64,000 nt of DNA from assembly GCA_963705105.1 (NCBI GenBank), contig CAVPIW010000009.1:160001-224000 (forward strand). Reading direction: 5' to 3'. Positions within the stretch are counted from its first letter, which is position 1; every line of letters starts with the position of its first letter. Of the stretch, positions 12,522 to 59,862 are shown one piece after another. A program made the position numbers and the translations under genes. This DNA is from an uncultured Nitrospiraceae bacterium (lineage in GTDB: Bacteria > Nitrospirota > Thermodesulfovibrionia > Thermodesulfovibrionales > Dissulfurispiraceae). The notes beneath the pieces are model-generated. The model ran no database searches, was not told the origin of the DNA, and was given only the letters and a program-made list of their open reading frames with translations.

Positions 12522-12715
12522 TTATGCGTACTGCCCGGCGACGTATCCGGAGGACCAGGCCCACTGGAGGTTGAACCCGCCCAACGGGCCGTCACGTCCG
12601 CGACCTCTCCGACGAAGAAGAGACGGGGACCTTCTTCGCCTCCATGGTCTTGAAAGCTCGTCCGTGTCGATCCCACCGATTTTGACCTCAGCCTTCTGAT
12701 ACCCCTCCGTTCCGC
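12522..12715 (-). pseudogene. Frameshifted C-terminal scrap of an HI0933/YhiN-family flavoprotein
   Basis: Minus-strand pieces GTEGYQKAEVKIGGIDTDELS / KTMEAKKVP / LFFVGEVADVT / GGFNLQWAWSSGYVAGQYA* across frameshifts. Confidence 0.75.
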
Positions 12716-12898
12716 GGGGAAAGGCGGGGCGAAGCGCTCTGAAAAACAGTGTCAGAGTGAGTGTCGGTAAAAAGGCTCACTTTCTCGACTATCGGCCTGA
12801 AACGCAGTCTTTGTCCCGCCACAGGTGTCGCCGCAGCAAGGTTTTCGGCGCATTCACCCCAGCCCTGCCTTTCCGGAATGCGTATGCAGCGATAAGGT
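12701..12898 (-). repeat. Long-hairpin intergenic repeat, copy 1 (type B)
   Basis: Shared core GCGCCGAAAACCTTGCTGCGGCGACACC, GACACT tract and CGCCCCGCCTTT. Confidence 0.9.
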
Positions 12899-12902
12899 TT
12901 GA

Positions 12903-13412
12903 TCAGTTCAAGCGGTCCGAAATCCGATTGATGCCCACCTGGGCGCACTCGTCGTCGATATCCGCCCCCGGTGCGCCTCCCACGCCGATGCCGCCGATCA
13001 CCTCGGTGCCTGAGCGAATGGGGAGCCCCCCGCCAAGGATGAGCACGTCGGCAAAGTCGCGGAGACCCTCGACTGTGGGGTCAGCGGCAATACGCTGGGA
13101 AAGCAGGAGCGTGCTTGACCGGAATGTGACGGCCGTCAGGGCCTTTCTCCTGCTCCCGTCAGGAGTACCAGGTCCCGCGCCGTCGTCCCTGATGAGGACC
13201 TTCGTGATGCCTGACCTGTCGACAACGGCCACGGAAACGCTGAACCCCCTTGCGATACAATCCTGCATTGCCGCCACGGCCGCCTCGGCGGCGAGAGCGA
13301 GTGAAATCTGCTTTTCGTTCAGCACCTGCGCCCCCGCAGGAGAGACCGACATGAGGATGAGGACTGTAAGCAGGCAGACAGGAACGGCAAGACTTTTCAG
13401 GAATCTTTTCAT
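12903..13412 (-). CDS. GlcG/HbpS-family heme-binding exported protein
   Basis: VSVAVVDRSG...RDDGA...RRKALTA...GGGLPI...IGGIGVGGAPG..DDECA; signal peptide. Confidence 0.88.
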   Translation of the reverse strand: MKRFLKSLAVPVCLLTVLILMSVSPAGAQVLNEKQISLALAAEAAVAAMQDCIARGFSVSVAVVDRSGITKVLIRDDGAGPGTPDGSRRKALTAVTFRSSTLLLSQRIAADPTVEGLRDFADVLILGGGLPIRSGTEVIGGIGVGGAPGADIDDECAQVGINRISDRLN

Positions 13413-13715
13413 CGTAAACCTCCCCCAAAATCTATATTGCGAGCCGTTAACAACGGCTTCTCTCATTATAGCCTTCCCCGGACGGAGCCGCAAGAGACAC
13501 GTCCGGCATCTGCCGGTCTTTGCGGAAAGATGACCAACACCGGCGTGACATGCGTAACATCTCGACCTGCATGGAACATTTGAATCAATTGTGTATCACA
13601 TATCATTCAGGAGTGCGATGGTCGAGAGTGCAAAATGCAATAATATCAAGTGGTTGAAAATGTGGTATGTATCTTGATAAGATATCACAAACGTTTTTCG
13701 AAGGGGAATCACAGA

Positions 13716-14033
13716 GTGCCTCCGGTGAAACATGTAACGGCGTGGCTGGCTTGCATCATGATCCTGTTTTCGGGCTTGCCGCTTCATATTGCCGTCCAGC
13801 CCGACGGCGACGGAACAGCGACGCGCATCTTGACTCTCGACGTCTGCCGCGCGTCCGGCTCGGTTTTTCATGAAAGCCCGGATATCACCTGTCTCAATGA
13901 GATACAGATCGATCTGACGGCATTCATCAGCGAATTCCCTTTGAATGAAGCGTTAAATACAGTCTGTATCCCTCTCCATGCCCGCCGTATAGAGCATCCA
14001 CCCCGTTTTCTGACCTCATTCCTCCAGGCATGA
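13716..14033 (+). CDS. Small hypothetical protein (hydrophobic N-terminus, LDVC, C-terminal IEHPPR)
   Basis: GTG after AAGGGG; lies directly upstream of the peroxidase. Confidence 0.5.
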   Translation: MPPVKHVTAWLACIMILFSGLPLHIAVQPDGDGTATRILTLDVCRASGSVFHESPDITCLNEIQIDLTAFISEFPLNEALNTVCIPLHARRIEHPPRFLTSFLQA

Positions 14034-14124
14034 CTTGAGTCATCAGGACTTTGAGGGCCTTGCCCCAATTGTCCGCGATACCGCTGCGTATCGATTTCAG
14101 AAAAGCCGTTTTTCATGGAGGATT

Positions 14125-15213
14125 ATGATGAAGAAAATGTGGTGTATCGTTCTTGCAGCCGTCGCCGCCCTTGTGCTGGCTGCTGCGGTCGATTCGGAGG
14201 CTCTCACGTCAAAAGAACTGTTAGGCCGGTTTCTGTATTTCGATGAAAATCTTTCGAACCCCGCCGGACAATCCTGCGCATCCTGTCATCATCCGAGGGC
14301 CGGCTGGGCCGATCCCGACAAGTCCCTGCCCGTGTCAGAGGGCGTGATACCAGGCCGATTCGGGACCCGGAATGCCCCGACGGCGTCCTATGCGGCCTTC
14401 AGTCCCGGTTTCGGTTTCGATGCGGTAGAAGGATTGTGGGTCGGCGGCCAGTTCTGGGACGGAAGGGCGAAGGATCTCGTGGAGCAGGCGAAGGGACCGT
14501 TCCTGAATCCCGTGGAGATGAACAACACAAAGGATGGCGTCGTCAATGCCGTTCGCGTTTCTCATTACGCGTGGCTCTTCAAGCAGGTGTACGGCCGCAA
14601 TGCATTGAAGGATGTCACGACGGCCTATGACTTCATCGCCGATGCCATCGCCGCCTTTGAGAAGACCGATCAGCTCAACAGGTTTACATCCAAATTCGAC
14701 TACTTTGTCAAGGGCAAGGTGCAGCTAACGGCCCAGGAGCTGAACGGCCTCAACCTGTTCAACGATCCTGCCAAAGGAAATTGCGCCGCCTGTCATCCCA
14801 GCACATCAGCAGACGGCATCACCCCGGCGCTCTTTACAGACTTCACCTATGACAACCTGGGCATACCGCACAATGACGAGATCGACCAGCTCGTGGGATC
14901 TGTCGTCCCACCCGATCTCGGGCTCGGCGTCACAGTCAACGACCCAGCAGAGAACGGCAAGTTCAAGGTCTCGACCCTGAGAAATCTGGCAAAGACGGCT
15001 TCCTATGGACACAACGGGTATTTCAAGACGTTGAAGGAGATCGTCCATTTCTACAATACGAGGGACGTCGCTGCGTGGCCCCCCGCTGAATACCCCGATA
15101 CGGTCAACAACACCGAGTTGGGCAACCTCGGGCTGACCCCGGCGGAAGAGGACGCGATCGTGGCTTTTCTCATGACACTGACGGACGGGTATTTCTGTAC
15201 GACCTGCCGGTAG
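14125..15213 (+). CDS. Di-heme cytochrome c peroxidase (CCP/MauG family)
   Basis: CASCH and CAACH; LGRFLYFDENLS, RNAPT, QFWDGRA, GKFKVSTLRN, YGHNG; signal peptide. Confidence 0.92.
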   Translation: MMKKMWCIVLAAVAALVLAAAVDSEALTSKELLGRFLYFDENLSNPAGQSCASCHHPRAGWADPDKSLPVSEGVIPGRFGTRNAPTASYAAFSPGFGFDAVEGLWVGGQFWDGRAKDLVEQAKGPFLNPVEMNNTKDGVVNAVRVSHYAWLFKQVYGRNALKDVTTAYDFIADAIAAFEKTDQLNRFTSKFDYFVKGKVQLTAQELNGLNLFNDPAKGNCAACHPSTSADGITPALFTDFTYDNLGIPHNDEIDQLVGSVVPPDLGLGVTVNDPAENGKFKVSTLRNLAKTASYGHNGYFKTLKEIVHFYNTRDVAAWPPAEYPDTVNNTELGNLGLTPAEEDAIVAFLMTLTDGYFCTTCR

Positions 15214-15770: not shown

Positions 15771-15957
15771 ACCGTATCGCTGCAATAGGACACCCGGAAA
15801 GGCGGGGCGTATGCGTCGAAAACCTTGCTGCGGCGGCACCCTTGCCTTGCCATGAAGATAATTTCGAGCCGACGGCTGAAAAAATTGCTGACACTCACAC
15901 TGACACTGACACTGTTTTTCAGAGCGCTTTGCCCCGCCTTTAAAGCAACCGAAAGGT
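15771..15957 (+). repeat. Long-hairpin intergenic repeat, copy 2 (type B)
   Basis: ACCGTATCGCTGCA...AAAGGCGGGGCG...GACACT tract...GCCCCGCCTTT...GCAACCGAAAGGT. Confidence 0.9.
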
Positions 15958-23601: not shown

Positions 23602-23815
23602 ACCGTGTCGTTGCATAAGCCCACCGGAGAGGCGGGGCGTATGCGCCGAAAACCTTGCTGCGGCGACTCCTGTATCATAACGAAAGACGAGCTATACGCC
23701 AATGGTCGATGACACAAAGAGCGGAATCCTGAATGACGAACCTGACGAGGCTCATCGTCGCCTTCAGCAAGGCTTTGAGGCGCTTCGCGCCGCCTTTTCA
23801 TGCAACAGATAAAGT
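23602..23815 (+). repeat. Long-hairpin intergenic repeat, copy 3 (type A)
   Basis: Core plus GCCAATGGTCGATGACACAAAG...TCGTCGCCTTCAGCAAGGCTTTGAGGCG. Confidence 0.9.
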
Positions 23816-25343: not shown

Positions 25344-25531
25344 ACCTTATCGTTGCAATACACGCCCGGGAAATGCGGGGCGTATGCGGCGAAAACCTTG
25401 CTGCGGCGACACCTTAACCGTCCCATGAGAATCATTTCAGGCCGACGGTTAAAGAAGTGAATCTTATACTGACACTCACACTGACACTGTTTTTCAGAGC
25501 GCTTCGCCCCGCATTTCCATGCAACAAGGGT
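25344..25531 (+). repeat. Long-hairpin intergenic repeat, copy 4 (type B)
   Basis: Core present; stem AAATGCGGGG/CCCCGCATTT carries a compensatory change. Confidence 0.92.
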
Positions 25532-27264: not shown

Positions 27265-27384
27265 CACGATCCTCCTTCGCCGGCGTGTGTCCGTCATTAT
27301 ACCCAAACCTTCATCCTGCAGGGAACAAAGAAGAAATCAATGAAAGACAATTTTCTGGTGAAGACGCCAATTTGAGTCCCTATC

Positions 27385-27444
27385 TGTCATCCCGGCTCGT
27401 CCGGGATCCCTCTTAAAGAAAGATTCCCGACAAGCGGGAATGAC
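27385..27444 (+). repeat. REP-like double-hairpin element
   Basis: TGTCATCCCGG...CCGGGAT...ATTCCCG..AAGCGGGAATGAC; a reverse-complement relative lies at 31246-31306. Confidence 0.7.
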
Positions 27445-31101: not shown

Positions 31102-31245
31102 AGATTCCTCCTTCGGACGCAACATTGTTCAGTCAATTATTCATTATAGAATAAACCTGCAAAAGAAATAGTGGCAGTGTCTGTGTCGGTGTCAATGAAG
31201 GAATCGTTTTCCTCATCGATAGGAACCTCGCTGCTTCCCCGTCCG

Positions 31246-45087: not shown

Positions 45088-45108
45088 ATAGACAAAAGGA
45101 GAGAAGCC

Positions 45109-45612: not shown

Positions 45613-45817
45613 TGAGGCTTGGCTACACGTGAACCGAGGCTGTCCGGGATGACGGTGGCTCGGGGCGCTCCGGGACCTCGCGGATTGGCAGATCCACGGA
45701 AAGTGGCGGACCCAAGGGGCGCTGACGCCGTGGACCTTTCGATCAGCGTTAGCCTATAATGTGCGAAGCGATCGACGCCCTTTGGGCGCATATCAGATCA
45801 GACCGGAGGAGTGAAAG

Positions 45818-46648: not shown

Positions 46649-46656
46649 CCGGTCGA

Positions 46657-46749
46657 AGAAAGGCATTCCAGCGGCCCATGGCCGAGGGGGCGGGGCTGCT
46701 GCAGGCCGCACAGGACGTCTGTCTCTGAGGGGATGTCACCGTCGCGTAG
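46657..46749 (+). repeat. Decayed copy of the last 93 nt of fbaB (direct repeat of 35874-35966)
   Basis: [29 protein letters not shown] versus [30 protein letters not shown]. Confidence 0.93.
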
Positions 46750-46805
46750 CACAAAGGAGCACGACCAGCCGTGACGTATCGTGATCTGCGAGGAGGTCAA
46801 TAAAG

Positions 46806-47762
46806 ATGAGCAAACCGGGCATCAATGATTCATCGGGAATTTCAGACGGCTATGCGGGCAGCCGGGTCGGCAGCGTCAGCAGTGCGTGTGTCATCATCGC
46901 TATGGCAGTCATCATTGCCTTCAGTGCCTGTCAATCGCCGGCAGCCGGGGCGCAACCAGCTGCCGGCACGGCTTCAGGGATGCTCACCATTAACGGGAAA
47001 GGCATCCCGCTGAAGTATTCCTATGCGATGGAACAGCCCAATACCTTTGATGCCGCCAAGAACGACATCGCAGTCTTGTTGACCGAAAATCCCCTCCCCG
47101 AAGAAGCGCTCACTGGCATCGCGGACCTGAGAGACGCCACCCGGAAGCAGCATGGCTGGGCCTTCTTCAAGATCAACAGTGTCGGGAAACCGATCTATGA
47201 GGTGATCGACCATCCCTCGACCAACGGTCAAATCTCGATGTCGGGTTTCACCCACGCAGGTTTCAGTGCGAGGGAAATGGGAAAGGACCGGGTGACGGGA
47301 TCGTTTGCGACCTCGAAGCCCGAAGACTTCATGACGTACAAATACGAGATCAAGGCGGAATTTTCCGCGCCTCTCCTGAAGGCAACGCTGCCGGAGCCTC
47401 TGCCGGATGCAAAGACCGGCAAGGCGCTCCCCGCCGGCGGGGGGGAGCCGGGCAAAGCCTATAACGCGCATCGCAAGGCCATAAGGGACAAGGACGTCGC
47501 AGCAATTCGCAGGACGGCTCCCTCCTCACAGGCTAAGGATATGTCAGACAGCGACCTGGAGAACATGATCGATTTCATGACCACCATATCCCCCGGCGCA
47601 CCGAAGATCACCAAAGGCTATGTGAAGGAAAACAGGGCTGTCCTCTATGTCGAGGGGGTTCACGAAGGTGAGATGCGATATGCAACAGTGGAGTTGGCAA
47701 GAGAGGGAAAGAAGTGGTATGTCGTAGAAGAAAAATGGAGCAATACACCGCTTAAGAAATAA
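46806..47762 (+). CDS. Hypothetical exported protein/lipoprotein
   Basis: 318-aa ORF, RBS GGAGG, hydrophobic leader ending FSAC. Confidence 0.7.
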   Translation: MSKPGINDSSGISDGYAGSRVGSVSSACVIIAMAVIIAFSACQSPAAGAQPAAGTASGMLTINGKGIPLKYSYAMEQPNTFDAAKNDIAVLLTENPLPEEALTGIADLRDATRKQHGWAFFKINSVGKPIYEVIDHPSTNGQISMSGFTHAGFSAREMGKDRVTGSFATSKPEDFMTYKYEIKAEFSAPLLKATLPEPLPDAKTGKALPAGGGEPGKAYNAHRKAIRDKDVAAIRRTAPSSQAKDMSDSDLENMIDFMTTISPGAPKITKGYVKENRAVLYVEGVHEGEMRYATVELAREGKKWYVVEEKWSNTPLKK

Positions 47763-47820
47763 AGGACAGCCGACGTTTCCCTTCCCGGACCGAAAATCCT
47801 TGAGGGAAAGCCTCAGGTCT

Positions 47821-48096
47821 CCCTTTAGTTGCATTGAAAGGCGGGGCGAAACGCTCTGCAATACAGTGTCAGTGACAGTGTGAGTGTCAGCAAAAAGTTC
47901 ACCTTTTTCAGCCGTCGGCCTGAAATAGCTTCATCGATGTCGGGCCGTTCGGGGAACGGCCCTTACAGGATTCCACTCTTTGTGTCATCGACCATTAGCG
48001 TATAGTTCATCTTTCGTTTTGATGCAGGCGTCGCCGCAGCAAGGTTTTCGGCGCATACGCCCCGCCTTTCCCGGGCGTGCAGTGCAACGATAAGGG
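47821..48096 (-). repeat. Long-hairpin intergenic repeat, copy 8 (A/B chimera with inserted REP-like palindrome)
   Basis: A-type 5' half, GGGCCGTTC...GAACGGCCC hairpin, B-type 3' half. Confidence 0.88.
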
Positions 48097-48288
48097 TCTC
48101 TCTAATTTCGGAGAGAGGTCATACAGATCGAAAATGTCCTTCCCATCCGCTTCATCCACCTGCTAACACGCAAGATCGTTAACCCGTCAGTAATGTTGAT
48201 TCTGTGAAGAAACCTACTTGACTGCAATGGAAGCCAGCTGAAGAACCCCCCCCAAAAAATTCCCCCTTTTTTCGCCTAAGATGACAGC

Positions 48289-48317
48289 TTGACACTTGTA
48301 ACCTGACCGGTTACACT
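48289..48317 (+). promoter_or_regulatory. sigma70 promoter with palindromic operator for higBA
   Basis: TTGACA-17-TACACT, with TGTAACC-N5-GGTTACA overlapping the spacer and -10. Confidence 0.7.
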
Positions 48318-48331
48318 ATAAACAATGAGGG

Positions 48332-48610
48332 ATGATCAAGACCTTCACACATAGAGGACTTGAAGACTTCTTTTATGATGGAAACAAAAAGGGTATCCAA
48401 GCCGTGCACGCGCAGAAACTCGCGGACATTCTGGACAGGCTCGATGCCTCATCCGTGGTGGAGGACATGAGATATCCCGGTTCCGACCTGCATCAGCTGA
48501 AAGGACCTCTGAAGGGATTCTGGGCTGTGAAGGTGTCCGGCAACCGGCGGGTGGTCTTCACATTCAGGGAGGGCAACGCCTACCAGGTGAACTATATCGA
48601 TTATCACTAA
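48332..48610 (+). CDS. higB: HigB toxin (RelE family)
   Basis: MIKTFTHRGLEDFF..G...LHQLKG...WAVKVSGN.RVVF.F...YIDYH. Confidence 0.9.
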   Translation: MIKTFTHRGLEDFFYDGNKKGIQAVHAQKLADILDRLDASSVVEDMRYPGSDLHQLKGPLKGFWAVKVSGNRRVVFTFREGNAYQVNYIDYH

Positions 48611-48623
48611 TAATGGTGAAGAC

Positions 48624-48914
48624 ATGAGAACGCGAAAGAGAACACCCACCCATCCGGGCGGCATTTTGAAGAGACAGTATATGGAGCCTTTGTCCCTGAC
48701 GGTTTCCGATCTCGCCGTTACCCTCGGAGTGTCGAGGAAGACACTCTCGAAAATCGTGAATGAGCGGGGCGCAGTGACCCCGGACATGGCGCTTCGTCTC
48801 TCCAGGGCCTTTAATACCACACCTGAACTGTGGCTCAACCTGCAGCGCTGTTATGATCTCTGGGAAGCTGCGCACAAGTCGGATGACTGGAAACTGGTCG
48901 AGGCGATAGCTTGA
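48624..48914 (+). CDS. higA: HigA antitoxin (Xre HTH)
   Basis: PTHPGGIL...LGVSRKTLSKIVN...VTPDMALRLS..F.TTPELWLNLQ. Confidence 0.92.
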   Translation: MRTRKRTPTHPGGILKRQYMEPLSLTVSDLAVTLGVSRKTLSKIVNERGAVTPDMALRLSRAFNTTPELWLNLQRCYDLWEAAHKSDDWKLVEAIA

Positions 48915-49010
48915 TGAGGTGTCCTTATCGTTGCTGAGTTTCCTGCTTGAAAGTTCTTCGACCTGATATTTCTTCGCCTCCTAGGGAGGTAAAAAGGGAC
49001 AACCCTATTT

Positions 49011-49212
49011 ATTGACAACCTGAGGGCTTTGTTGTGTTGTGCCGACTCGCCCAGGGACTGAGCCTTGTATGCGGTTTCTGTTCCCCGGATCAGGTCCGGG
49101 GCAGGCTCTTGCCTTCGGTCCGTACTCGTGATAGCATCCATCAGTATGAACACTTTCAGGTTCTCGTACAGGGGACTTTCACCCCATAAGCTCACGCCCA
49201 TGCCGGGCGTAC
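49011..49212 (-). mobile_element. 5' remnant (domain I) of a bacterial group II intron inserted in an attC site
   Basis: Minus strand begins GTACGCCCGGCATGGGCGTG...GGGGTGAAAGTCCCC, as in class C/E intron 5' ends. Confidence 0.75.
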
Positions 49213-49318
49213 ACGAATCGCTGAAACCAACCAAGAAATGCGGTCGGAAAAATCAGGTGGTTGAGTTTTAGTTTGGAGTTTGCCCGCCTTTCTTGGCGGC
49301 TTATCTTGATCGTTATGC
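49213..49318 (+). other. Integron attC recombination site (R'' interrupted by the intron)
   Basis: AC-GAATCGCTGAAACCAACCAAGAAATGCGG ... CCGCCTTTCTTGGCGGCTTATCTTGATC-GTTATGC, an imperfect inverted repeat ending in a GTTRRRY-like core. Confidence 0.7.
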
Positions 49319-49381
49319 TATGATTAAGAAGATGGGGAAAAACTGAATAATATTGAGCGAAACAAGAAAGGAGAAGACATT

Positions 49382-50191
49382 ATGAAACAGACAGTAATCA
49401 GTTTCAGCATCCGAATAGCGCTTGCAGCATTACTGATGGCCTTAGTCGTACCATGCGCAATTGCACAACAAGCGCCTTCGGCTGAAAAATCGGCGATAAT
49501 TTTAAAAGCTTATGGTCCAGGCGGTCCCGCCCCGGCAATGCGCGAAGCTGCGAAGGTATTCGGAGCCAAAAAAGGAACTATGGTGGAGATAACTGCCGGC
49601 CCGACACCGACTTGGAAAGATCAAGCAATGAAGGATGCAGACCTGATTTTCAGCGGTTCCGAGTATATGATGACTGATTTCGTGCGAAAGGATGTTCCCG
49701 GACTAATCGACACTTCAACAATCCGAACCCTTTATCTGCGACCTTCGGCTATTCTCGTCCGCCCGGGTAATCCTAAGGGTATCAACGGCATTAAAGACCT
49801 TGTCAAACCGGGCATTAAGATTCTTGTGGTTGAAGGAGCCGGACAGGTCGGAATGTGGGAGGATGTGGCAGGTCGAACAGGCAGTGTCAAACTTGTTGAC
49901 GGCATACGCCGCAACATCGGTTTCTTCGCAGCCAATAGCGCCGAAGCAAAGAAGATATGGAACAGCGATATGAGCTATGATGTTTGGCTCATCTGGACTA
50001 TTTGGCAGAAGGAGAGTCCCGCGTCTGCCGACCTTGTCAACACCGAGCCTGAAAACACGATTTATCGCTCATGCGGTATTGCACTAACAAATCGATCAGA
50101 ACAAAAGGCATTGGCTAAGGAGTTTGCCGATTTTCTGCAGTCGGCTGAGGGGAAAGGAATTTTTGTAAAATGGGGCTGGATTGCACCTTAG
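49382..50191 (+). CDS. AcfC-like periplasmic substrate-binding protein (gene cassette)
   Basis: YGPGGPAPAMREAA..F, ADLIFSGSEYMM, LYLRPSAILVRPGNPKGI, GAGQVGMWED; lower GC than flanks. Confidence 0.85.
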   Translation: MKQTVISFSIRIALAALLMALVVPCAIAQQAPSAEKSAIILKAYGPGGPAPAMREAAKVFGAKKGTMVEITAGPTPTWKDQAMKDADLIFSGSEYMMTDFVRKDVPGLIDTSTIRTLYLRPSAILVRPGNPKGINGIKDLVKPGIKILVVEGAGQVGMWEDVAGRTGSVKLVDGIRRNIGFFAANSAEAKKIWNSDMSYDVWLIWTIWQKESPASADLVNTEPENTIYRSCGIALTNRSEQKALAKEFADFLQSAEGKGIFVKWGWIAP

Positions 50192-50252
50192 ACGTCACTT
50201 TTGCCCCATTTTCCTGATTTAGGAACTGTTTTTACCGGAAGTGCTTGGCCTA

Positions 50253-50445
50253 ATCGGGTAAGGGACGGCAGCTAACCGTCCCTGCCCACACCACCCATCG
50301 AACGGGTCCGTAATGGGCGGTTCGCGGAAATTATCGGGCCGTAGCCGGATAGTGAATCCCTATCCACAGTGATCGTATCGACAGAAGTCCCTGTCTTGCC
50401 AGAAACTCATTGCCCAAGCCGCAATTCGCAGCAGTAGCAAAAGAG
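50253..50445 (-). mobile_element. 3' remnant of a group IIC intron: maturase C-terminus plus domains V/VI
   Basis: Minus strand GAACCGCCCATTACGGACCCG...GGTGGTGTGGG (DV, CGC triad), GGGACGG..CCGTCCC-TTACCCGAT (DVI); preceded by NEFLARQGLLSIRSLWIGIHYPATAR*. Confidence 0.85.
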
Positions 50446-50463
50446 CAAAAGGGACAACCCCCT

Positions 50464-50631
50464 ATTTTGACCTCGATCGCCTGCGGGGATACCAACCGTG
50501 CGATCGCTGAGAAGCTGCGGATCAGCGAAAAGACCGTTGAGACCCACCGCAGCAGGATGATGCAGAAACTCGACATCCACCGCCTTGCCGACCTCGTGAG
50601 ATTCGCCCTGGCCGCGGGACTTGCGCCTTAA
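50464..50631 (+). pseudogene. C-terminal LuxR/NarL HTH scrap
   Basis: ILTSIACGDTNRAIAEKLRISEKTVETHRSRMMQKLDIH..ADLVRFA; no N-terminus. Confidence 0.8.
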
Positions 50632-50802
50632 CGGCATACCCGCCTGCAGCAGCAGCACGACAAAGAATCCCTATTCCCCTCAAGGACTTTTATCTCCCCT
50701 GCCTGCCGTCTACAAAAAAGCCTCTACAGACAAAACTGTACAAAATTACATGGTTCTCCCGACTAACTTTTCTCCGATTCTCTGGTATTTAACAGATAGG
50801 AA

Positions 50803-50885
50803 CACACGATAAAGCCAAACCATCCGCAAGGGTGGGACGGAAAGCAACGAGTCTCGCAAGAGACGGCCGGGCTGCCGAAGAAAAT
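50803..50885 (+). promoter_or_regulatory. Cyclic di-GMP-I (GEMM-I) riboswitch
   Basis: CCAAACCATCC-GCAA-GGGTGGGACGGAAAGC...GTCTC-GCAA-GAGACGGCCGGGCTGCCGAA matches GEMM-I P2/P3 architecture; about 200 nt upstream of ORF 51080. Confidence 0.85.
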
Positions 50886-51079
50886 CTGTAATCTGTGCAT
50901 GTTCGGCCTTTCTTATCGACGGCCAACCGTTGATGGAGAGGGAAGGAGGCAGCGTCTATGACGTAGGGGGATCATGTAGGATTCACATTGGATGAGGAGT
51001 TGACGTATGGAGTCAGTGAATGACGTTTTTATGTTCAACGACACATGCATGGTAGAACTACTACCCCAGGGAGGTTGTC

Positions 51080-51859
51080 ATGAGAAGCTATCTGAAGAAT
51101 GTGTGCTGTGTCATCGCAGCAGTCATCCTCATCGCAGGGTTCGTGGCAGGGTCTGTATCGCAAGTGTATGCGCAGGCTAACCCCCGTGTCATACCGCCGA
51201 ATGCCCATGCGTACGGCATGACGTACGGCGAATGGAGCGCAGAATGGTGGAAATGGCAATTTATCTTACCCTCTGCCGGCCATCCTGCCTTCGATTTCAC
51301 TGGTGAGAACTGCGGTGCGGGACAAGAGGGCAAGGTATGGTTTCTGACAGGCGCGTTTCAGAACGAATTTCCCAACAACGAATTCTTCACAATCGTTCGT
51401 GAGTCGTGCTCCGTGCCGGCCGGCAAGGCCATCTTTTTCCCGATCATCAACAATGAATGCTCGACTTTAGAAGGTTACCCCTGGGACCTGATACTATCAG
51501 GGGAATACCAGAATGTGGACACCTGTGCGGCAAGGTTCTTCGATGGTACTGTTACAGTAGTAAAAGATCTTTCTGTCACAATAGACGGCAGGTCCTTGAA
51601 AAACCTGGAAGCCTACCGTATCCAGTCAGAGGTGTTCACATTTAGTTTGCCCGACGACAACATTCTCGGAATAGATTGCAACACAGCAAATTGTGTTGAT
51701 CCGCTTTCGGTGTCTGATGGCTATTGGATTATGCTCGCACCTCTATCAGTGGGCAAGCATACGATCAGGTTTACCGGTAGCTTCAGATATCCAAACGACG
51801 ATCTAAACTTTGGTTTGGATGTTACGTATGTGCTGACTGTAGTCGGAGGCATGAAGTAG
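51080..51859 (+). CDS. Hypothetical exported Cys-containing protein
   Basis: Signal peptide; YGEWSAEWWKW, VWFLTG, CSVPAGKAIFFPIINNEC, SDGYWIMLAPLSVGKHTIRF. Confidence 0.8.
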   Translation: MRSYLKNVCCVIAAVILIAGFVAGSVSQVYAQANPRVIPPNAHAYGMTYGEWSAEWWKWQFILPSAGHPAFDFTGENCGAGQEGKVWFLTGAFQNEFPNNEFFTIVRESCSVPAGKAIFFPIINNECSTLEGYPWDLILSGEYQNVDTCAARFFDGTVTVVKDLSVTIDGRSLKNLEAYRIQSEVFTFSLPDDNILGIDCNTANCVDPLSVSDGYWIMLAPLSVGKHTIRFTGSFRYPNDDLNFGLDVTYVLTVVGGMK

Positions 51860-52020
51860 TCAGGTGCGAGGTGACTCCGCAAGAGTTCTGATCGAGCCCC
51901 CCAATAAGGCTCCCCGCCGGGAGGCGGGGAGCCGGGGAATACTGAAACAGAGATGTCTTAGAACATGCCCGGCCTTTCTTGTTGACAGAAACGCTGTCGA
52001 TCCAGAAGAAAGGAAGTAGT

Positions 52021-52560
52021 TGATAACGTTCAGGACATCGTTTACTCAAAGAATGGTCACGACATCGTTTATCGCTTTGATCGGATGTATTTTACGATGT
52101 CGTGACTCATCACCAGTTATCGCATTTGATAGTTGTATTCTTCAACCTGGATCTTATCCAGAAAGAGTTTTAATTTTTGCTCTTTGACATCGACAGTAGC
52201 CACGACGTATTCATATTGGGTTTCCGGAGGAGCGGGAAACATTTCCCCAAAAATGTTCAGCCGGCAATCACTTCGGATGAATCGGACGAAGTGGTAGTAA
52301 CCCTCTTCTGGCTTATCCAAGGGGTGCCTGGGGACATCCCTCTTACTCGGGAAGATCAACTTCCTTCGTGTGTCAGTCAAGGCTTTGAGAGGAGTTTTCC
52401 CCTTGATCTTACTATAGCGATACGTGCTGTTATGCCTATGCTCGAACACCAGCGACTCCTGTCGAAGCTGATCCCCGGAGGCCATCTTTACTTTGGCGAG
52501 AAACTTCTGCCCATAGTGGTCATTGAATTTTTCAACGACGCCGTTGCGCCGTCCCTCCCC
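52021..52560 (-). mobile_element. 3' remnant of an IS481-like integrase-core transposase with terminal repeats
   Basis: GVVEKFND...RHN..YRYSKIKGKTP on minus strand; GACATCGTTTA repeated at 52034 and 52061 and inverted near 52094. Confidence 0.6.
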
Positions 52561-52796
52561 ACACCACTACCATGCGGGTCCGCCGACATTGCAATGTTAC
52601 GACCGGAAATCGTGCGTCGGAGCTGATCGCCAGCTTCGAGTGTTAGCGGCTTAACCACGCGTTCACAGCCTGACTGGAAAAGCATTAGTTCGGATCAACT
52701 CCGCAGCGTTATTGAGTTCCCGCCGCACGCGGACTTCTGTGAGAAAATCACTGTCTCTTCATCGCAGAGGGGAAGTAATAAGCCGCAGACATTCGA

Positions 52797-53231
52797 TCAG
52801 CCGACGAGGGGATTGCGGACCTGCAGATCAGGAAAGCGGCCGAAGTCCCTGTCGGCCGTCCACAACTCGGTGACGCCGTGGTGCTTGCATAGAGCGGCAA
52901 CGCGCGTATCGTGAACTTGAGGTCCACAGATCCTCCCGGTTTGAAGAAGGGACCGCAATTGTTGCCAGTAGTCCTCGGATTCCGAGAGAAGCAGAAGGCT
53001 TGGGGATTCCAGCCAGGCGTCAACCTGCGATACGGCAATCTCTATAGGAGTCGGCGGATCGTAGATCCTTGGGTGTGTCACGATAGCAAGAAATTCATGG
53101 ATGCACGGCCATGGTATCGCCCACGGCGCCTGTCCTTCGGCCAGTTCGGAAATGCGGGCATAGGCCGCATCGTGCCATGGAGAGTCTTCGCGATGAGCAT
53201 ACACAAGCAGGTTGGTGTCGACGGCGATCAT
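52797..53231 (-). CDS. VapC PIN-domain toxin
   Basis: IAVDTNLLVYAHR, IHEFLAIVT, VHDTRVAALC, WTADRDF. Confidence 0.92.
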   Translation of the reverse strand: MIAVDTNLLVYAHREDSPWHDAAYARISELAEGQAPWAIPWPCIHEFLAIVTHPRIYDPPTPIEIAVSQVDAWLESPSLLLLSESEDYWQQLRSLLQTGRICGPQVHDTRVAALCKHHGVTELWTADRDFGRFPDLQVRNPLVG

Positions 53232-53473
53232 CCGCCGCGGCCCTCATAGCTCGCATCGCGAAGCCTGGCCCAGGAGGCGCCTTGAAAGTCGGGGTGCAGC
53301 CCTTTGCCTTTGAATGTCGCCTTGCGGAGTCTGAAGCGCTCACGCTGCCTGCGTTCGGAAATGACCCGCCTGAGACCGGCCTCGATAAGGGCTTTCATAG
53401 TTGTGCGCTCCTCCCTGGCCAGCTTTTGCGCTTCTTTGAAAAGGCTATCAGGTATCTGGACGGTCGTCTTCAT
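53228..53473 (-). CDS. VapB-type antitoxin
   Basis: MKTTVQIPDSLFKEAQK.A...TTMKALIEAGLR; overlaps the vapC start. Confidence 0.85.
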   Translation of the reverse strand: MKTTVQIPDSLFKEAQKLAREERTTMKALIEAGLRRVISERRQRERFRLRKATFKGKGLHPDFQGASWARLRDASYEGRGG

Positions 53474-53554
53474 ATGGTTAACAATATCGCTTTATATGGC
53501 AATATGTCAAGGATGACTGGGTGACGGATGTGCCTGTTGACAAGCGGCGCCTTA

Positions 53555-53767
53555 ACCTTATCGTTGCATACGCTTTCCGGAAAGGCGGGGCGTATGCGCC
53601 GAAAACCTTGCTGCGGCGACACCTGTATCAAAAGGAAAGACGAACTATAAGCCAATGGTCGATGACACAAAGAGTGGAATCCTGAAACACGAAAATGACA
53701 ATGCGTATCGTCGCCTTCAGCAAGGCTTTGAGGCGTTTCGCCCCGCCTTTTTGTGCAACTACAGGGT
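53555..53767 (+). repeat. Long-hairpin intergenic repeat, copy 9 (type A)
   Basis: Full termini ACCTTATCGTTGCA / TGCAACTACAGGGT. Confidence 0.92.
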
Positions 53768-53780
53768 TAACAGCACCCCA

Positions 53781-54092
53781 GGGCGTTCCGGGACATCGAG
53801 GGGCGGCAGATCTTCGGGGAGTGGCGGACCCAAGGGGCGTTGCTGACCACGTGGACCTTTCGATCCACATTAGCCTATAATGTGCGAAGCGATCGATGCT
53901 CGTCGGGCGTCTATCAGTTCAGACCGTAAGAGTGAAAGATGAAACGACCTTCCCGAATCTACCCGGCGGAGGACTTCAGATCAAGTCCGATAACGACCTT
54001 CAGGGCAGCGGCCGTTGAGATAGCCCGGCATACGCCTTGTACCACACTGAAAAAGCAAGATTCGATGTCCCTGCGGGGACACGGGACATCGG
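53781..54092 (+). pseudogene. Decayed, internally deleted duplicate of the OMP gene 45818-46648 with its upstream region
   Basis: Matches 45663-45829, then jumps to about 46165-46305. Confidence 0.85.
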
Positions 54093-54132
54093 CTGATAGC
54101 CCCTGTTTTCAGACTCCCCGTCACAGGAGCGT

Positions 54133-54738
54133 GTGATTTCTTGCATGAGAGAAGACGAAAAACTGAGACAGTTGATTGAGGAAGCGGAAAAATCGGGAGC
54201 GACAGAGCTTGCGATTATTTCGACAGGGAGCATCGCCATTGATGACGAACAGACCGTCAGGTGCCTGAAACCGCGATGTGAGAATTACGGGCTGTCAAAG
54301 AGCTGCCCTCCTCACGTGCCGGGAATTTCCGTGTTCAGGAAAAAACTTGAGGACTTCAGTCAGGCGCTCTTCGTGAGAATCGACGTTCCCCCTGAAGTGC
54401 TGTATTCCAGCGACGGCAGGCAGGTCTTTCAACTGCTCCATGAAGTGGTATCCGGCATCGAAAGGAATGCCGTCACCATGGGATTTACAGGCGCACAGGC
54501 GTACGCGGGAGGTTCGTGCAAGAAGATCTTTTGTCATGACCATCCTGAATGCCGGGCCCTTTCGGAGGACGGAGAATGCAGGAATCCTGAATACGCAAGA
54601 CCATCCATGTCGGGATTCGGGATCAGTGTGGCAAAGCTCTATGAGACCGCCGGGTGGACCATGGGAGAAGCGACTCATGACGTCGCGTCAAAGGGAGAAA
54701 AAACGGCAAGCGTGTGCGGCCTGGTGTTGATCTTTTGA
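54133..54738 (+). CDS. DUF2284 Cys-rich metal-binding protein
   Basis: C..PRCENYG.SKSCPP, GGSCK..FC...C, CRNP..ARPSMSGFGI. Confidence 0.85.
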   Translation: MISCMREDEKLRQLIEEAEKSGATELAIISTGSIAIDDEQTVRCLKPRCENYGLSKSCPPHVPGISVFRKKLEDFSQALFVRIDVPPEVLYSSDGRQVFQLLHEVVSGIERNAVTMGFTGAQAYAGGSCKKIFCHDHPECRALSEDGECRNPEYARPSMSGFGISVAKLYETAGWTMGEATHDVASKGEKTASVCGLVLIF

Positions 54739-54916
54739 CCTTCTTTCCGGCAAAAGCAAGGTTCTTCGCAGAAATCATCAGCACCCGGCAGCATTAGCCC
54801 TCTCTGCCCCCGCATGCGGAGAGCACTCCCCCGGACGCAAGGGCGTAAGAGGGATGATCCTTGGCTATTCTCTCCCTGAAATGCTGTCGATTGGTACCGT
54901 GGTCCCGCCCGATTTT

Positions 54917-55112
54917 ACCTTATCGTTGCAATACACTTCCGGGAAAGGCGGGGCGTATGCGCCGAAAACCTTGCTGCGGCGACACCATAACCGTCCCATG
55001 AGGATCATTTCAGGCCGACGGTTAAAGAAGTGAATCTTATACTGACACTCACACTGACACTGACACTGTTTTTCAGAGCGTTTCGCCCCGCCTTACTACG
55101 CAACTGCAAGGT
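54917..55112 (+). repeat. Long-hairpin intergenic repeat, copy 10 (type B, close to copy 4)
   Basis: Inner sequence nearly identical to copy 4 with one extra GACACT unit. Confidence 0.92.
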
Positions 55113-56447
55113 TTATCTTCTTCCCGCTCCGGCAACCAGCCTGTTCGTTTCCATGCGGCAGCTCTGCTCAAAGTCGTCCCTGCGGAGATACCGTCCCGCG
55201 CTGACGGACAACAGGCTCCCCAGTCCCGTGCGGGGGCGTATGATCCTCTTATAGATGGAGCGCAGGGAGTTGAATTTCCTGTACGCATAAATATACCCAT
55301 CAAAGAGCTGTTCTCCCGTCAGTTTCGGATGACTGATGACCACCCGGTTACAGTCATACATATCCCACCGCTCGGTAAGCAGACGGCCCTCAGCCTTGTA
55401 TCGCTCATGAAGCTTGGTTCCCGGTAAGGGGGTGAGAATGTAAAAGTTGGCCAACTCCAGCTTGTTCTTTATCGCAAAATCCACGGTGCGGTCGAAGGCG
55501 GTCTCGTCGTCGTTGTCGAGTCCGAAGATGAAGGAACCGACAAGGTTCACTCCGGCCTTATGCAATATGTCGAAGGCCTCCTCAAACTCGATGGCCTTCC
55601 TGTTCCAGGCCTTGCCCACGTCCGCGAGGTTCTCGGCAGACGGTGATTCAACGCCTATGAACAGCCACCGTAGTCCGGCCCTGATCGCAAGTTTCAGAAG
55701 TTTGGGATTCCTGGCGAGGGTTATGTCTCCCTGGGCGCCGAAGGTCTTCTTCAACGGTATCATCGCTTCAAAAAGCTCCTCTGCGTGCCTGCGGTGCCCG
55801 TATATGTTGTCATCCACAAACTGGATGAAGTCGCCCCTGAGCTGTCTGACCTCCTCAATGACTTCCTCCACTGGTCTCGTCCTGATCCTGCCGCCCCAGA
55901 AGCTCGTCACGGAACAGAAGGCGCAGTCGTGAGGGCACCCCCGTGTGGTCATCACGACGTTCTGCATGGTGTATCCACCAGGCTTCAGAAGATCGCGCCT
56001 GGGGGTGGGAAGCCCGGCGAGGTCATGGAATGATTCCGTCGAATAGATGCTCTGCGTCGTTCCTGACTTGAAGTCCTTCAGGAAACGGGGCCAGCTCACC
56101 TCAGCCTCGCCCACGACCACGGTATCGGCGTGCGCGCCGGCCTCCTCGGGGAAAAGAGATGCGTGGATTCCGCCTATCACGACACAGACTCCTCGCTTGC
56201 GGAACTCGTCACCTATCTGATATGCCCTGAAGGCTGTGGACGTCATGGTTGTAATTCCCACCAGGTCGGCCTGAGCGTCGAAATCGATATCTTCGATGTT
56301 TTCATCGATGATGCGCACCTCGAAATCGCCGTCCGCGTAACCCGCAAGAAGGGGCAGGTTGATCTGGGCCATTGACGAGCGCGTTCGACGTTTCGACCCG
56401 AAACGGTTTTTATCGGGCGAGGGATGGATAAGGAATAGCTTCAGCAT
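55113..56447 (-). CDS. B12-binding radical SAM protein
   Basis: DLVGIT, VVIGGIH, VVVGEAE, TRGCPHDCAFC, FVDDN. Confidence 0.9.
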   Translation of the reverse strand: MLKLFLIHPSPDKNRFGSKRRTRSSMAQINLPLLAGYADGDFEVRIIDENIEDIDFDAQADLVGITTMTSTAFRAYQIGDEFRKRGVCVVIGGIHASLFPEEAGAHADTVVVGEAEVSWPRFLKDFKSGTTQSIYSTESFHDLAGLPTPRRDLLKPGGYTMQNVVMTTRGCPHDCAFCSVTSFWGGRIRTRPVEEVIEEVRQLRGDFIQFVDDNIYGHRRHAEELFEAMIPLKKTFGAQGDITLARNPKLLKLAIRAGLRWLFIGVESPSAENLADVGKAWNRKAIEFEEAFDILHKAGVNLVGSFIFGLDNDDETAFDRTVDFAIKNKLELANFYILTPLPGTKLHERYKAEGRLLTERWDMYDCNRVVISHPKLTGEQLFDGYIYAYRKFNSLRSIYKRIIRPRTGLGSLLSVSAGRYLRRDDFEQSCRMETNRLVAGAGRR

Positions 56448-56457
56448 CCTGGAAGTG

Positions 56458-56817
56458 TTACACGTAGGCAATGGCGATCTCGTATGCAACATGGGCCGGA
56501 CAGGCTTTCGGCTCTACGCCATAGCAATCGAGTTCTCCCGTTCCGGCACAACTGCGGCTTCCGATCATCTCTGTGATGAGCCGGCTCATATCGAACCCTC
56601 CGTTGACACAGTGCTTCGACAAGCAACTCATCTTGAAAAAGGCGAAGCTGGAGGGATGGAACCAGCGATTCCTTACGACCGATCTGATGCCGCGCTGCCA
56701 GTGGGTCATCGTGACGATAATCTTTTCAACCTCAGGAAACTTGTCAGCCAAAGTGCCTGCCTCGCGCTCCTCCTGGATCCATGCCTGCCTTGCCTCTGAA
56801 TGCCTGCTGTTGATCAT
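56458..56817 (-). CDS. Hypothetical Cys-containing small protein
   Basis: RBS GGAGG; FFKMSCLSKHCVNGGFD...GELDC. Confidence 0.65.
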   Translation of the reverse strand: MINSRHSEARQAWIQEEREAGTLADKFPEVEKIIVTMTHWQRGIRSVVRNRWFHPSSFAFFKMSCLSKHCVNGGFDMSRLITEMIGSRSCAGTGELDCYGVEPKACPAHVAYEIAIAYV

Positions 56818-56872
56818 GGTTGCCCTCCGGAAGAGAAGGCCCCTCCCGAGGAAGGGCCTTGTTGTGGGGTGA

Positions 56873-57073
56873 TTAGAGTTTGACGACGTTCGTAGCTTTG
56901 GGGCCTTTCGGACCCTTTTCGATGTCGAAGCTGACCTTGTCACCCTCGGCGAGGCTCTTAAAGCCACTGCCCTGGATGGACGTATGGTGGACAAAAACAT
57001 CAGTCTGATCTTCACTGGTGATGAAGCCGAAACCCTTGCTGTCGTTAAACCACTTCACAGTTCCTTGCGGCAT
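56873..57073 (-). CDS. Cold-shock protein
   Basis: [38 protein letters not shown]. Confidence 0.97.
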
Positions 57074-57171
57074 GTTGGTTATCTCCTTTTCTTAAACTAA
57101 AATCTCAGAAGCAGCAAACAAAAAAGGGCCACCATATTAAAAGTTTTGTGGCCCGTTATGAACGCAAAAAC

Positions 57172-58639
57172 TCTCCCGCGCCGGCAGTGTCGTGTTCGTC
57201 CTGAGGACCCACTTGCCGTCATACCGTCCCTCCGCCTTGATCTTGTCCTCATCGATCCCGAACCTCTGCCCCGTCGCCTTGAGGTACTTCCGGTACCCCT
57301 TGTTGCCCACCAATGTCTTGTGTCCCTGCTGCAGTTTGTCCCGCAGGGAGGCAACGATACTCTGCCGGTCAAGAGCGTCTTTCTTGGCCTGATCCTCGTT
57401 GTAACAGACGACGTACCGTCTGTCGTCAACACGCACGTCCTTGACTTTCAGCGGTGAGGGCGCTTTGCTGTCCGCACCCTTGGGATACACTTCCTCATAC
57501 CTGCCCGCCCGGCTGAGCACCTCCTGGGTGACCTCTTTCTGTCTCCTCATCCGGGCGCCCAGGATGTACGGGACCTCCCCCGTCTGCAACTCCTTGACCG
57601 TCGCCGCGCTGATCATCCCCCGGTCCGCCACGACACAGACCCGCTGGATCCCAAACCGCTTGCGTAATCTCTCGGTGACGGGAAGAAGGCTCTTGACGTC
57701 CGTCGTGTTGCCCGGCCACAACTCACAGCACAACGGCCGACCCGCGCTGTCGATGATCACACCCACCACCATCTGCAGAAGGTCAGGCCGGTGGTCCTTG
57801 CTGTTGCCCAACTGCCCGATCTCCTCTCCCCCATTTCCTTCAAAATAGATGCTCGTGGTGTCAAAAAACACCAGGGTGAGATCTGTAAACAGGTCCCTCC
57901 GGCGCTCAAAGATCCCTTCTTCGATCAGGTCCTTCGTGCACCGGCAGGCAAAGGGTGTCGCCCCTTCCTGGTCGTCCTCCGGCAACTCCTCCCCTAACCA
58001 TGCCATCGCCCGGTACAGGTGGTGCAGCTCGATCCCCTCCGCCGCCTCAATCCGGTAGTCGTCCTTCCACTTGTCCGCCGCCCTGTCAGAGCCCGATGCG
58101 CTGAGCCGGTGCAGCACCGTCAGATAGATCGCCCTCTCCACGGCAAACTGATACTTCCTCTGCGACAGCACGCGGGTGATCACGTCCGGGATGCCGAGTT
58201 CCTTCCATAGTCGGCCAAACACCAGAGGCAGTCCGATCTTTTGCTGTCCCACAGACGGAACCTCTCCCTTGTCATAGGCATCAAGCAGGGCAAGCTTTTC
58301 TGAAAACCGCGCCCCCGAGCGTACGAGGCTGTCCAAAGCTCCCGATTCCCGGAGTTTATCGACACGCCCCAGGGTGGCGATGACTTTCTGGCGGACCTTG
58401 CCGTTTTCCCATCGGCTTTCAACGATCTGCAGATAGGAGCGGGGGCCGGATGGTTTGATTCTGATGAACATGACATTAATATTATACCCATTCTAATCCC
58501 TATTGGCAAGCTTATAATGGCTATGACGTGGCACTATGTTTTGAGCTTCTTTCCAATTCCTCTCCTCATATCACCCTGTTTCTCATAGATTCTTATGTCT
58601 GATTCGGAGCGCTTTTCGGGTCCAACTGTAGAAGATGGG
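57172..58639 (-). mobile_element. IS1634-family element, 3'-truncated (transposase ORF 58471-57137)
   Basis: YLQIVESRW..GKVRQKVIATLGR, LVFFDTTSIYFEG, GNSKDHRPD, VADRGM; ends after VLRTNTTLPARE without the final catalytic region; probable end CCCATCTTCTACAGTTGG. Confidence 0.85.
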
Positions 58640-58769
58640 TCTAAGACTTATATTTAAAAAATACCACACCCCGACTCAATTTGACAAGGAGCGATACGGA
58701 CCTGCCTGCTGCCGTCGGCACGTCAGCCAGGATCGTCGGGAGAAATGACCGGAAGAATCCGGTGCTTCC

Positions 58770-58820
58770 TTGATTTTGCCGCTCCCATGGGGGATAATTA
58801 TACGAGGAGGAGAAGGCATG
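58770..58820 (+). promoter_or_regulatory. Promoter/RBS block of pgl, duplicated at 63903-63953
   Basis: TTGATT-17-GATAAT...GAGGAGG...ATG; 43/51 identical to the second copy. Confidence 0.7.
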
Positions 58821-59516
58821 CTACAGATCATCGAGGAAAGAGACCAGGACAGGCTTCTGCAGACGGCGGGACTGAAGCTCTGCGAAAAGATCAGGGGGGC
58901 GCTGGCCGCGCGGGAGAGGGTGAATCTGGCGGTGCCGGGCGGACGAAGCGTTGCGAAGATATTCCAGGTGATGCAGCGTGAGCAGCTCGACTGGCAGCGG
59001 GTGCACTTCTTTATCATCGACGAGAGGCTGGTGCCCGTCGATCACCCCGACAGCAACTACAAGCTCCTGCAGGACAATTTCATTACACCCCTGGCTCAGG
59101 CAGGAAGGATCGCCCCCGGCAACGCCCATCCCTTCATCCTGGACCCGGCAAGCGCCGATCGCGGGGCGAAGCGCTATGAGAATGTTCTTGTCGAATACGG
59201 TTTCCGCTATGACATCATCCTCCTGAGCTCCGGCGAGGACGGCCACGTGGGCGCATTGTACCCGCACCATCATTCCGTCGAAAACAGGCACCACGGCTTC
59301 ATCGTAATGAGCGATTCTCCCAAGCCTCCTCCGGAGAGGATGACGTCATCCCTGTCGCTGATGCAGACCGCAGACGTCGCCATGATCCTCTTTACCGGCG
59401 AGGCGAAGCGTGAGGCTTATGAGAAATTCAACGATCCTGCCAGCCCCATCGCCGCCTGCCCGGCGAAGCTGGTGCTGGCGATCAGGGATGTCACAGTATG
59501 TACGGATCTGCTTTAA
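58818..59516 (+). CDS. pgl: 6-phosphogluconolactonase
   Basis: LAVPGGRS, DERLVP.DHPDSN, GEDGHVG.LYP, DSPKPPPERMT, GEAK. Confidence 0.9.
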   Translation: MLQIIEERDQDRLLQTAGLKLCEKIRGALAARERVNLAVPGGRSVAKIFQVMQREQLDWQRVHFFIIDERLVPVDHPDSNYKLLQDNFITPLAQAGRIAPGNAHPFILDPASADRGAKRYENVLVEYGFRYDIILLSSGEDGHVGALYPHHHSVENRHHGFIVMSDSPKPPPERMTSSLSLMQTADVAMILFTGEAKREAYEKFNDPASPIAACPAKLVLAIRDVTVCTDLL

Positions 59517-59616
59517 CCGTATCGTTGCAATCACCCCTGTCAAAAATATTTTGCAGCCGGACTTTGAAAACGAGGATAGGCCTTTTCTTGGTCGCAAAAG
59601 AGAAAACCAAGAATAT

Positions 59617-59645
59617 TCTCACGCAAAGCCGCAAAGAGCGCAAAG
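59617..59645 (+). repeat. Short tandem (CGCAAAG)x3 with 9-nt period
   Basis: TCTCACGCAAAGCCGCAAAGAGCGCAAAG. Confidence 0.6.
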
Positions 59646-59648
59646 TAA

Positions 59649-59862
59649 ACCTTATCGTTGCATACGCCTTCCGGAAAGGCGGGGCGTATGCGCCGAAAAC
59701 CTTGCTGCGGCGACACCTGTATCGAGACAATAGAAGAAATTATAAGCCAATGGTCGATGACACAAAAGATGAATTCCTGAAACACGAAGCTGACAATACG
59801 TATCGTCGCCTTCAGCAAGGCTTTGAGGCGCTTCGCCCCGCCTTTGCATGCAACTGGAAGGT
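59649..59862 (+). repeat. Long-hairpin intergenic repeat, copy 11 (type A)
   Basis: Full termini ACCTTATCGTTGCA / TGCAACTGGAAGGT. Confidence 0.92.

Follow-up and report, generated by a model that had tools for sequence, protein, structure and literature searches.

A MITE family tied to an IS1380 subclade

The window analysed here is a 64,000-nucleotide stretch (positions 160,001 to 224,000, forward strand, of contig CAVPIW010000009.1) of the genome assembly of an uncultured Nitrospiraceae bacterium (GCA_963705105.1, hereafter G000; 4.23 Mb, 19 contigs, 99.36% complete, ~57% GC). It holds eleven copies of a short dispersed element, which we assign to a miniature inverted-repeat transposable element (MITE) family. 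This family very probably derives from, and is mobilised in trans by, a subclade of DDE transposases of the insertion sequence (IS) family IS1380. Judged from its ends and target duplication, it is a previously unnamed MITE family tied to an unnamed IS1380 subclade. An earlier, sequence-only reading of the window had called the copies a non-autonomous, MITE-like mobile element, and the target duplication, the empty sites and the lack of an own open reading frame (ORF) bear this out. By contrast, its terms 'new mobile RNA', 'REPIN-like' and 'structure-dependent' are not supported: a 4-bp duplication, single-copy empty sites and termini common to the IS1380 subclade indicate ordinary DDE transposition in trans.

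Copy number, element limits and target duplication

Profiles of both ends were run over the assembly with nhmmer (E 0.01), giving 667 left-end and 621 right-end matches, partly cross-hits to the opposite end. When paired, these matches yielded at least 450 complete, non-overlapping copies on 17 of the 19 contigs, together covering 100.8 kb (2.4% of the genome). These figures are minima, as nested, interrupted and eroded copies are excluded. The density of about one copy per 6 kb reported earlier is correct for the window, while the genome mean is lower, at about one per 9.4 kb (450 complete copies in 4.23 Mb). A typical complete copy measures 185-215 bp. By the motifs of their right halves, the copies divide into 258 of type A (mode 212 bp), 135 of type B (mode ~195 bp) and 57 with neither motif. 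At most one reading frame is often open (26 of 52 copies of 212 bp), and no copy lies wholly within a called gene. Two small contigs without element copies deviate in GC content from the 57% found elsewhere (C1, 5.3 kb, 45.5%; C3, 9.2 kb, 67.2%) and are possibly contaminants or mobile DNA.

The element runs from CC to GG, with termini that are imperfect inverted repeats of 13-14 bp, to which subterminal arms are added. The frame described earlier for all copies was found again, except that the outer A and T of its ACC/GGT termini belong to the 4-bp target duplication. With the CC…GG boundary, 116 of the 206 copies anchored at both ends are flanked by a perfect 4-bp direct repeat and 53 by one with a single mismatch (perfect repeats in shuffled flank pairs, 12.7). 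The flank profile is symmetric, T-W-W on the left of the element and W-W-A on its right, and the duplications are mostly T-W-W-A, the commonest being TTAA (21), TAAA (21) and TTTA (14). An ACC…GGT boundary with a 2-bp repeat predicts the same empty site, but it was rejected as outer bases other than A (14/20) and other than T (14/21) are still duplicated.

Numerous copies sit within other repeats, and therefore the empty-site test was possible inside G000. A paralogue across the junction was found for 34 of 225 strict copies, and 16 of these aligned at 19/24 or better on both sides. The paralogous empty site has a single copy of the 4-mer in 14 of the 16, with one 5-bp overlap and one 13-bp gap in the others. 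Perfect duplications increase from 6/31 in the most diverged class of copies to 47/72 in the youngest. Nearest-neighbour identity has a median of 92.5% and reaches 99% or more in 24 of 355 copies, and one identical 212-bp pair lies in unrelated flanks. Members of the family have thus inserted recently. A frequent insertion target is a REP-like double-hairpin repeat family with ~59 genome matches (e.g., window positions 27382-27453 and 31238-31309); at C5:60772 of G000, the end of an IS110 element lies within such a repeat and adjoins a MITE copy.

Termini and duplications shared with full-length IS1380 elements

CC ends combined with a 4-bp duplication, which we take to be IS1380-like, prompted a search for IS1380 in 151 genomes of the class. 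Matches were found in 49 of them, and 3 of the 30 loci examined had MITE-like termini; the transposases of these three loci are 61-68% identical to one another. One of them, P0001, scored 223.9 bits against the NCBIfam IS1380 model NF033539 (cut-off 180) and also matched PF13701. It has at least 5,332 homologues at E 1e-80, and an element name was absent from all 120 of those listed. At E 1e-20, 34 of 301 genomes from the order matched P0001 (13 at 60% identity or more, some being fragments); at E 1e-60, 6 of 401 genomes from the phylum did.

The correspondence keeps the asymmetry of the element end for end, the MITE right end being the IS left end and the MITE left end being the IS right end. 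In genome G404 the IS left end is the same, base for base, as the right end CCTTCCAGTTGCAT (59861, minus strand), and a single base separates the left end CCTTATCGTTGCA from the IS right ends of G527 and G219. Scored with matrices of the MITE ends, both termini reached at least 11 bits in 12/12 scored loci of the P0001 clade and at least 14 bits in 11/12; these loci come from 7 genomes and are hence not independent. Among the controls, both termini reached 11 bits in 0/22 loci of other IS1380 clades and in 0/13 DDE loci of G000. Three loci had no scorable ORF.

The full-length IS1380 elements also share the duplication, which is a perfect 4-bp repeat in 7 of 8 complete copies. It reads TTAT, TTTA, TTAA and TTTA in G591 (4/4), and TCAA, TTAA and TTGA in G219 (3/4), where one copy is mismatched. 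In an alignment of the ends (A3, one G219 row excluded), the MITE right end and the IS left end run colinear up to about position 55. At locus L108, 17 of 31 positions between 20 and 50 match, a count equalled by 16 of 100,000 shuffles, which is optimistic as this locus is the best of several. A putative motif at about positions 37-46 presumably resembles part of an IHF site. Overall, the MITE has the CC…GG ends, the 13-14-bp asymmetric termini and the 4-bp T-N-N-A/T duplication of the P0001 subclade (~1.5-1.65 kb), whereas it lacks a transposase and carries at both ends a GC-rich subterminal inverted arm.

Several results weigh against an IS1380 origin and mobilisation. Despite the recent-looking copies, no IS1380 transposase or remnant was found in G000 by PF13701, tblastn or protein searches, and in G004, the one further genome that carries the family, the only IS1380 belongs to a different clade (24% identity). 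No full-length element with the GC-rich subterminal arm was found among those examined; the cognate IS right end is short and the arm is absent from it. Moreover, one end scores high in 2 of the 22 IS1380 controls (L123, 14.8 bits; L129, 15.5 bits). Finally, for the four copies in 44500-64000, no clean empty-site joint was seen among 15 of 58 joints listed, from contigs of 4 of 22 public runs.

An autonomous copy whose arms enclose a transposase, as the sequence-only reading had suggested looking for, was sought in G000 by pairing ends 0.5-4 kb apart with a 4-bp duplication; this gave five candidates, none of which encloses a recognisable transposase by eye. All of the 32 long repeated regions, contig ends, and DDE, IS701-like and Y1 loci of G000 have other ends. 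The helper transposase may have been lost recently, be missing from the assembly or have been supplied transiently.

Alternative enzymes and the RNA-role question

A MITE of IS1380 ancestry could now be moved by a different resident DDE enzyme (IS1634, IS4, IS701/ISH3-like or IS1182). G000 indeed has 15 PF01609 matches, several of them recent identical copies, and no IS1380, and IS1634 ends likewise begin with CC. However, with the MITE matrices the DDE termini of G000 (13 loci) do not exceed 8.1 bits, duplications of the active IS1634 are 5 bp long (three sites, by eye), and IS1634 inserts into MITE copies instead of having the same ends, so that we regard such a change of enzyme as improbable. 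We give even less credit to a REPIN/BIME-like element of a Y1 (RAYT-type) transposase or an attC-like site of a tyrosine recombinase, although four Y1 genes are present in G000, the halves of the element are mosaic and the end geometry has what we take to be a superficial likeness to attC. The Y1 genes are bordered by unrelated short motifs and not by MITE ends, the family is present in G004 where PF01797 has no match, and the flanking genes include housekeeping genes and no cassettes; to our knowledge, neither a Y1 nor a tyrosine-recombinase mechanism is expected to duplicate a variable 4-bp target. The duplication and the empty sites largely refute this explanation.

Strong folding could instead point to a multicopy structured RNA, or to an element retained for an RNA role in mRNA stability or termination. 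Folding reproduced the inner pairings proposed earlier for type A, which forms one long imperfect hairpin (53545-53777; z -6.35 as RNA and -4.30 as DNA against shuffles), while type B folds less well (54907-55122; RNA z -3.08). In an alignment of 18 sequences (copies of G000, L056 and G004), 23 consensus pairs are confined to the subterminal arms, and no consensus structure emerges for the core that the arms enclose. Of the 23 pairs, 5 changed on both sides between the lineages of G000 and G004, over a nearly gap-free length of 212 nt, but these changes trace essentially to a single lineage split, and a count of 5 was equalled in 170 of 500 shuffles; alignment cells with double changes outnumber all shuffles, whereas the number of such pairs does not. 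Similarly, G-U exceeds A-C (245 vs 88, on the strand of the earlier reading), but the excess comes from three adjacent columns fixed per subfamily, and the terminal stem gives 48 vs 59. Most copies lie close to gene 3' ends, yet their orientation is unlinked to the neighbouring genes, and no Rfam match was found in Rfam 15, either at gathering thresholds (window) or at E up to 1 (five loci), in line with the sequence-only reading, which did not recognise a known RNA family. Concerted change of two sites for one protein would account for the arm covariation as well as RNA pairing does. Long stem-loop folding is, according to PMC2229807, the rule for published bacterial MITEs. Overall, we consider it unlikely that an RNA role explains the family; an effect on mRNAs reading into a copy is possible by analogy with that proposed for NEMIS (PMC2229807).

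Types, mosaics and composite copies

Left and right halves are combined in mixed fashion among copies. Those of 330-400 bp contain a 170-nt cassette that aligns to the interior of the G004 element and of type A, and which, from this alignment, looks like an older sister element enclosed by newer ends. In one long copy (C11:29013-29351 of G000) the interior is inverted relative to the outer ends, as expected from recombination between subterminal arms. A subfamily with a shortened right end occurs at the same position in one other repeat (C7:106499, C19:47229, C14:123922 and about ten more loci), and this composite may have spread as one unit. Hexamer tandem tracts have 164 matches within type B copies and 181 free in the genome, some in long arrays, with one at window positions 27491-27515; they seem to have been captured by type B.

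Placement and orientation

Genes were called with our own dicodon model (3,530 genes, 77% coding; some short genes missed). Only 5 of the 450 copies overlap a called gene, each by 39-66 nt at the gene edge. Among 415 scored gaps, 73 are divergent (107 expected), 291 tandem (266) and 51 convergent (43; p=7e-4), and the divergent-gap deficit fits selection against promoter disruption. A stop codon lies at the duplication in 60 of 450 copies, which a target with TAA or TTA in it would favour. Since length plus 4 is divisible by 3 in 101 of 225 copies, insertion into genes with the frame preserved was considered; it was rejected, as none of them lies inside a called gene.

In tandem gaps, 132 copies have the same and 159 the opposite orientation to the genes (p=0.13), which agrees with the independence from neighbouring genes claimed earlier. 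Orientation nevertheless goes with the local GC skew: the two agree in 198 of 315 copies (p=0.0005 by a sign-flip test on blocks, of which 28 of 43 lie above half and 7 below). The skew is weak, and it may link orientation to replication. Co-orientation with neighbours was not seen (232/433, p=0.15).

Copies and neighbouring features in the window

The eleven copies and the lone left end were all found where the earlier reading had placed them; there is no twelfth complete copy in the window, and the profiles of both ends recover exactly the eleven. None of them overlaps a called gene, in agreement with the gene avoidance described earlier, and 10 of 11 lie 0-132 nt past a stop codon, a slight correction of the distance. 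Genes near the copies include argS, pgl, zwf, and those for mechanosensitive channels and radical-SAM enzymes. By script, 4 of the 11 duplications are perfect; two more were recognised by eye and one has a single mismatch.

Four copies on the plus strand are type A. That at 59650-59861 (212 bp) has a perfect TAAA/TAAA duplication, and its right 14 nt are identical to the IS1380 left terminus of locus L105 in G404. The copy at 53556-53766 (211 bp) is flanked by a perfect TTAA/TTAA; its proximity to a stop codon rests on an ORF dropped by the gene caller used. At 23603-23814 (212 bp), the TTAA/TTAA flanks were set with a right end placed by eye, the script end being one base earlier, and at 31975-32186 (212 bp) the duplication TAGA/GAGA has one mismatch. 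Type B is found on the plus strand at 54918-55111 (194 bp), where a perfect TTTA/TTTA overlaps the stop codon of a minus-strand radical-SAM gene, at 15772-15956, 15 nt beyond the argS stop and with an eroded duplication (TTCA/TAAC), and at 25345-25529, where the right terminus is 3 nt short and GTTA/GTTA was seen by eye but not called by script. On the minus strand lie a type B copy at 30375-30574 in a convergent gap, with an eroded right end; a copy with a type B right half at 12702-12897, with an eroded right end and no intact duplication; a copy of the older A2 subfamily of type A at 34664-34868, with a truncated right end; and, at 47821-48095, a 275-bp chimera, type A on the left and type B on the right, with a perfect AGAC/AGAC. 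The lone 13-bp terminus (59517-59529, plus strand) stands directly after the pgl stop codon, is followed by an unrelated dispersed repeat, and is probably a truncated older copy.

Other repeats and features lie nearby. Between pgl and the MITE, 59530-59648 holds two further dispersed repeats: one of ~100 bp (14 motif matches) and a tandem motif that is short and rich in purines (61 matches). Repeats of 80-100 nt with two copies each, next to genes and unrelated to the MITE, occur at 45646-45822 and 53764-53943, and at 35874-35970 and 46657-46753. An IS1634-family element with a truncated 3' end occupies 57137-58639 (minus strand); full 1,953-bp IS1634 copies were found at four other sites of G000, of which C10:241130 lies inside a MITE copy and C6:934050 at the end of one. 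A c-di-GMP-I-GGC riboswitch above the Rfam gathering score is located at 50805-50880 (plus strand), upstream of an ORF without Pfam match (51080-51859). A weak Rfam match to group II intron D1-D4-3 (35.6 bits) at 49003-49083 (minus strand), where public contigs show raised depth, is probably a group II intron 5' remnant.

Distribution in relatives and public data

G004, of the same family but another genus, has a diverged sister family of 212 bp with the same layout (36 matches to one internal motif), and those of its copies that have kept their ends show 4-bp duplications. Across the phylum, 2 of 401 genomes contain the type A right-end motif, and across the class, 1 of 251 contains the left-end motif; a further scan with the right-end motif gave 5 loci, all in G004. 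In JGI metagenomes, the left-end pattern had no match and the right-end pattern matched one contig, which carries a type A copy. Viral contigs gave no match to the element motif or to P0001, phages gave none, and plasmids gave one 32-bp chance match only.

Over the four copies in 44500-64000, the Logan contigs from runs X1 (perhaps the sample of origin), X2 and X5 reach a summed depth of ~300-1,200, against mostly 5-25 over the flanks. The public runs listed as carrying this DNA include no RNA data set. Contigs leaving the left end at 54917 into unrelated flanks numbered 10, 27 and 13, respectively. In one X5 contig (~91% identity over 58765-59560), an element end is attached at a place where G000 lacks one; this single contig hints weakly at presence/absence variation.

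Comparison with known systems

In substance the family is an IS-derived MITE, an outcome that by the sequence-only reading would remove its novelty, although no named ISfinder element or published description was found. A full-text literature search, with subscription journals and ISfinder outside its coverage, gave no publication title or abstract describing the family or an IS1380-derived MITE in the lineage. The named IS1380 members ISEcp1, IS1247 and ISPme1 are distant, ISEcp1 being 25% identical to P0001.

A 13-bp terminus, spacers of unequal length (3 and 13 nt) and a subterminal repeat of 19-20 bp make up a layout that we assume to be piggyBac-like. In PMC10813416, IS1380 transposases are the prokaryotic outgroup of the eukaryotic piggyBac superfamily, which has a similar 4-bp TTAA-type duplication with variants and a C-rich 5' end. 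Unlike piggyBac, the present family is bacterial and non-autonomous and has a looser target; the comparison is one of layout and duplication. IS1247 is listed with a 5-bp duplication in PMC3281130.

As PMC2229807, PMC4133298, PMC9330008 and PMC3281130 describe them, Correia/NEMIS of Neisseria, RUP of Streptococcus, ERIC and the TIMEs of Pseudomonas are likewise short and non-coding, with IS-like terminal repeats and target duplication, and form up to hundreds of mostly intergenic copies with a long stem-loop, making up ~2% of a genome. RUP is tied to IS630 and the TIMEs to Tn3. Compared by description, these families mostly duplicate TA (the TIMEs 5-6 bp), whereas the present family duplicates 4 bp, is GC-rich and is tied to IS1380.

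Proposed mechanism and significance

We propose that the subclade transposase would bind both ends, excise or copy the unit and reinsert it with a 4-base stagger. The 60-70-nt subterminal inverted arms may act as additional protein-binding or bending sites, and the long hairpin would be a by-product of the inverted ends and arms. Genic insertions would be purged, leaving intergenic copies as survivors, and a T-W-W-A target, which contains TAA or TTA, would favour landing at stop codons. Recombination from half to half, together with capture of an older sister element, could have produced types A and B and the 330-400-bp composites.

A bolder extension gives the subterminal arms a function: an IS1380-type reaction would act on the short element when folded as single-stranded or cruciform DNA at the replication fork, so that the short element would outcompete its parent IS, persist longer than it and wrap older elements in new ends. 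This is suggested by the both-sided arm changes between two genera at a constant 212 bp and by the orientation tracking GC skew, but we hold it to be a doubtful proposal. If true, the family would be a natural minimal substrate for the little-studied bacterial piggyBac relatives.

The MITE makes up ~2.4% of the genome of an uncultured bacterium, whose intergenic DNA it has reshaped, and it offers a clean case in which the parent IS clade is identifiable from ends and target duplication. Moreover, its hundreds of insertion sites allow the target preference and end requirements of an IS1380 subclade to be defined. Its importance would be greater still if the arms are required for transposition or regulate neighbouring mRNAs.

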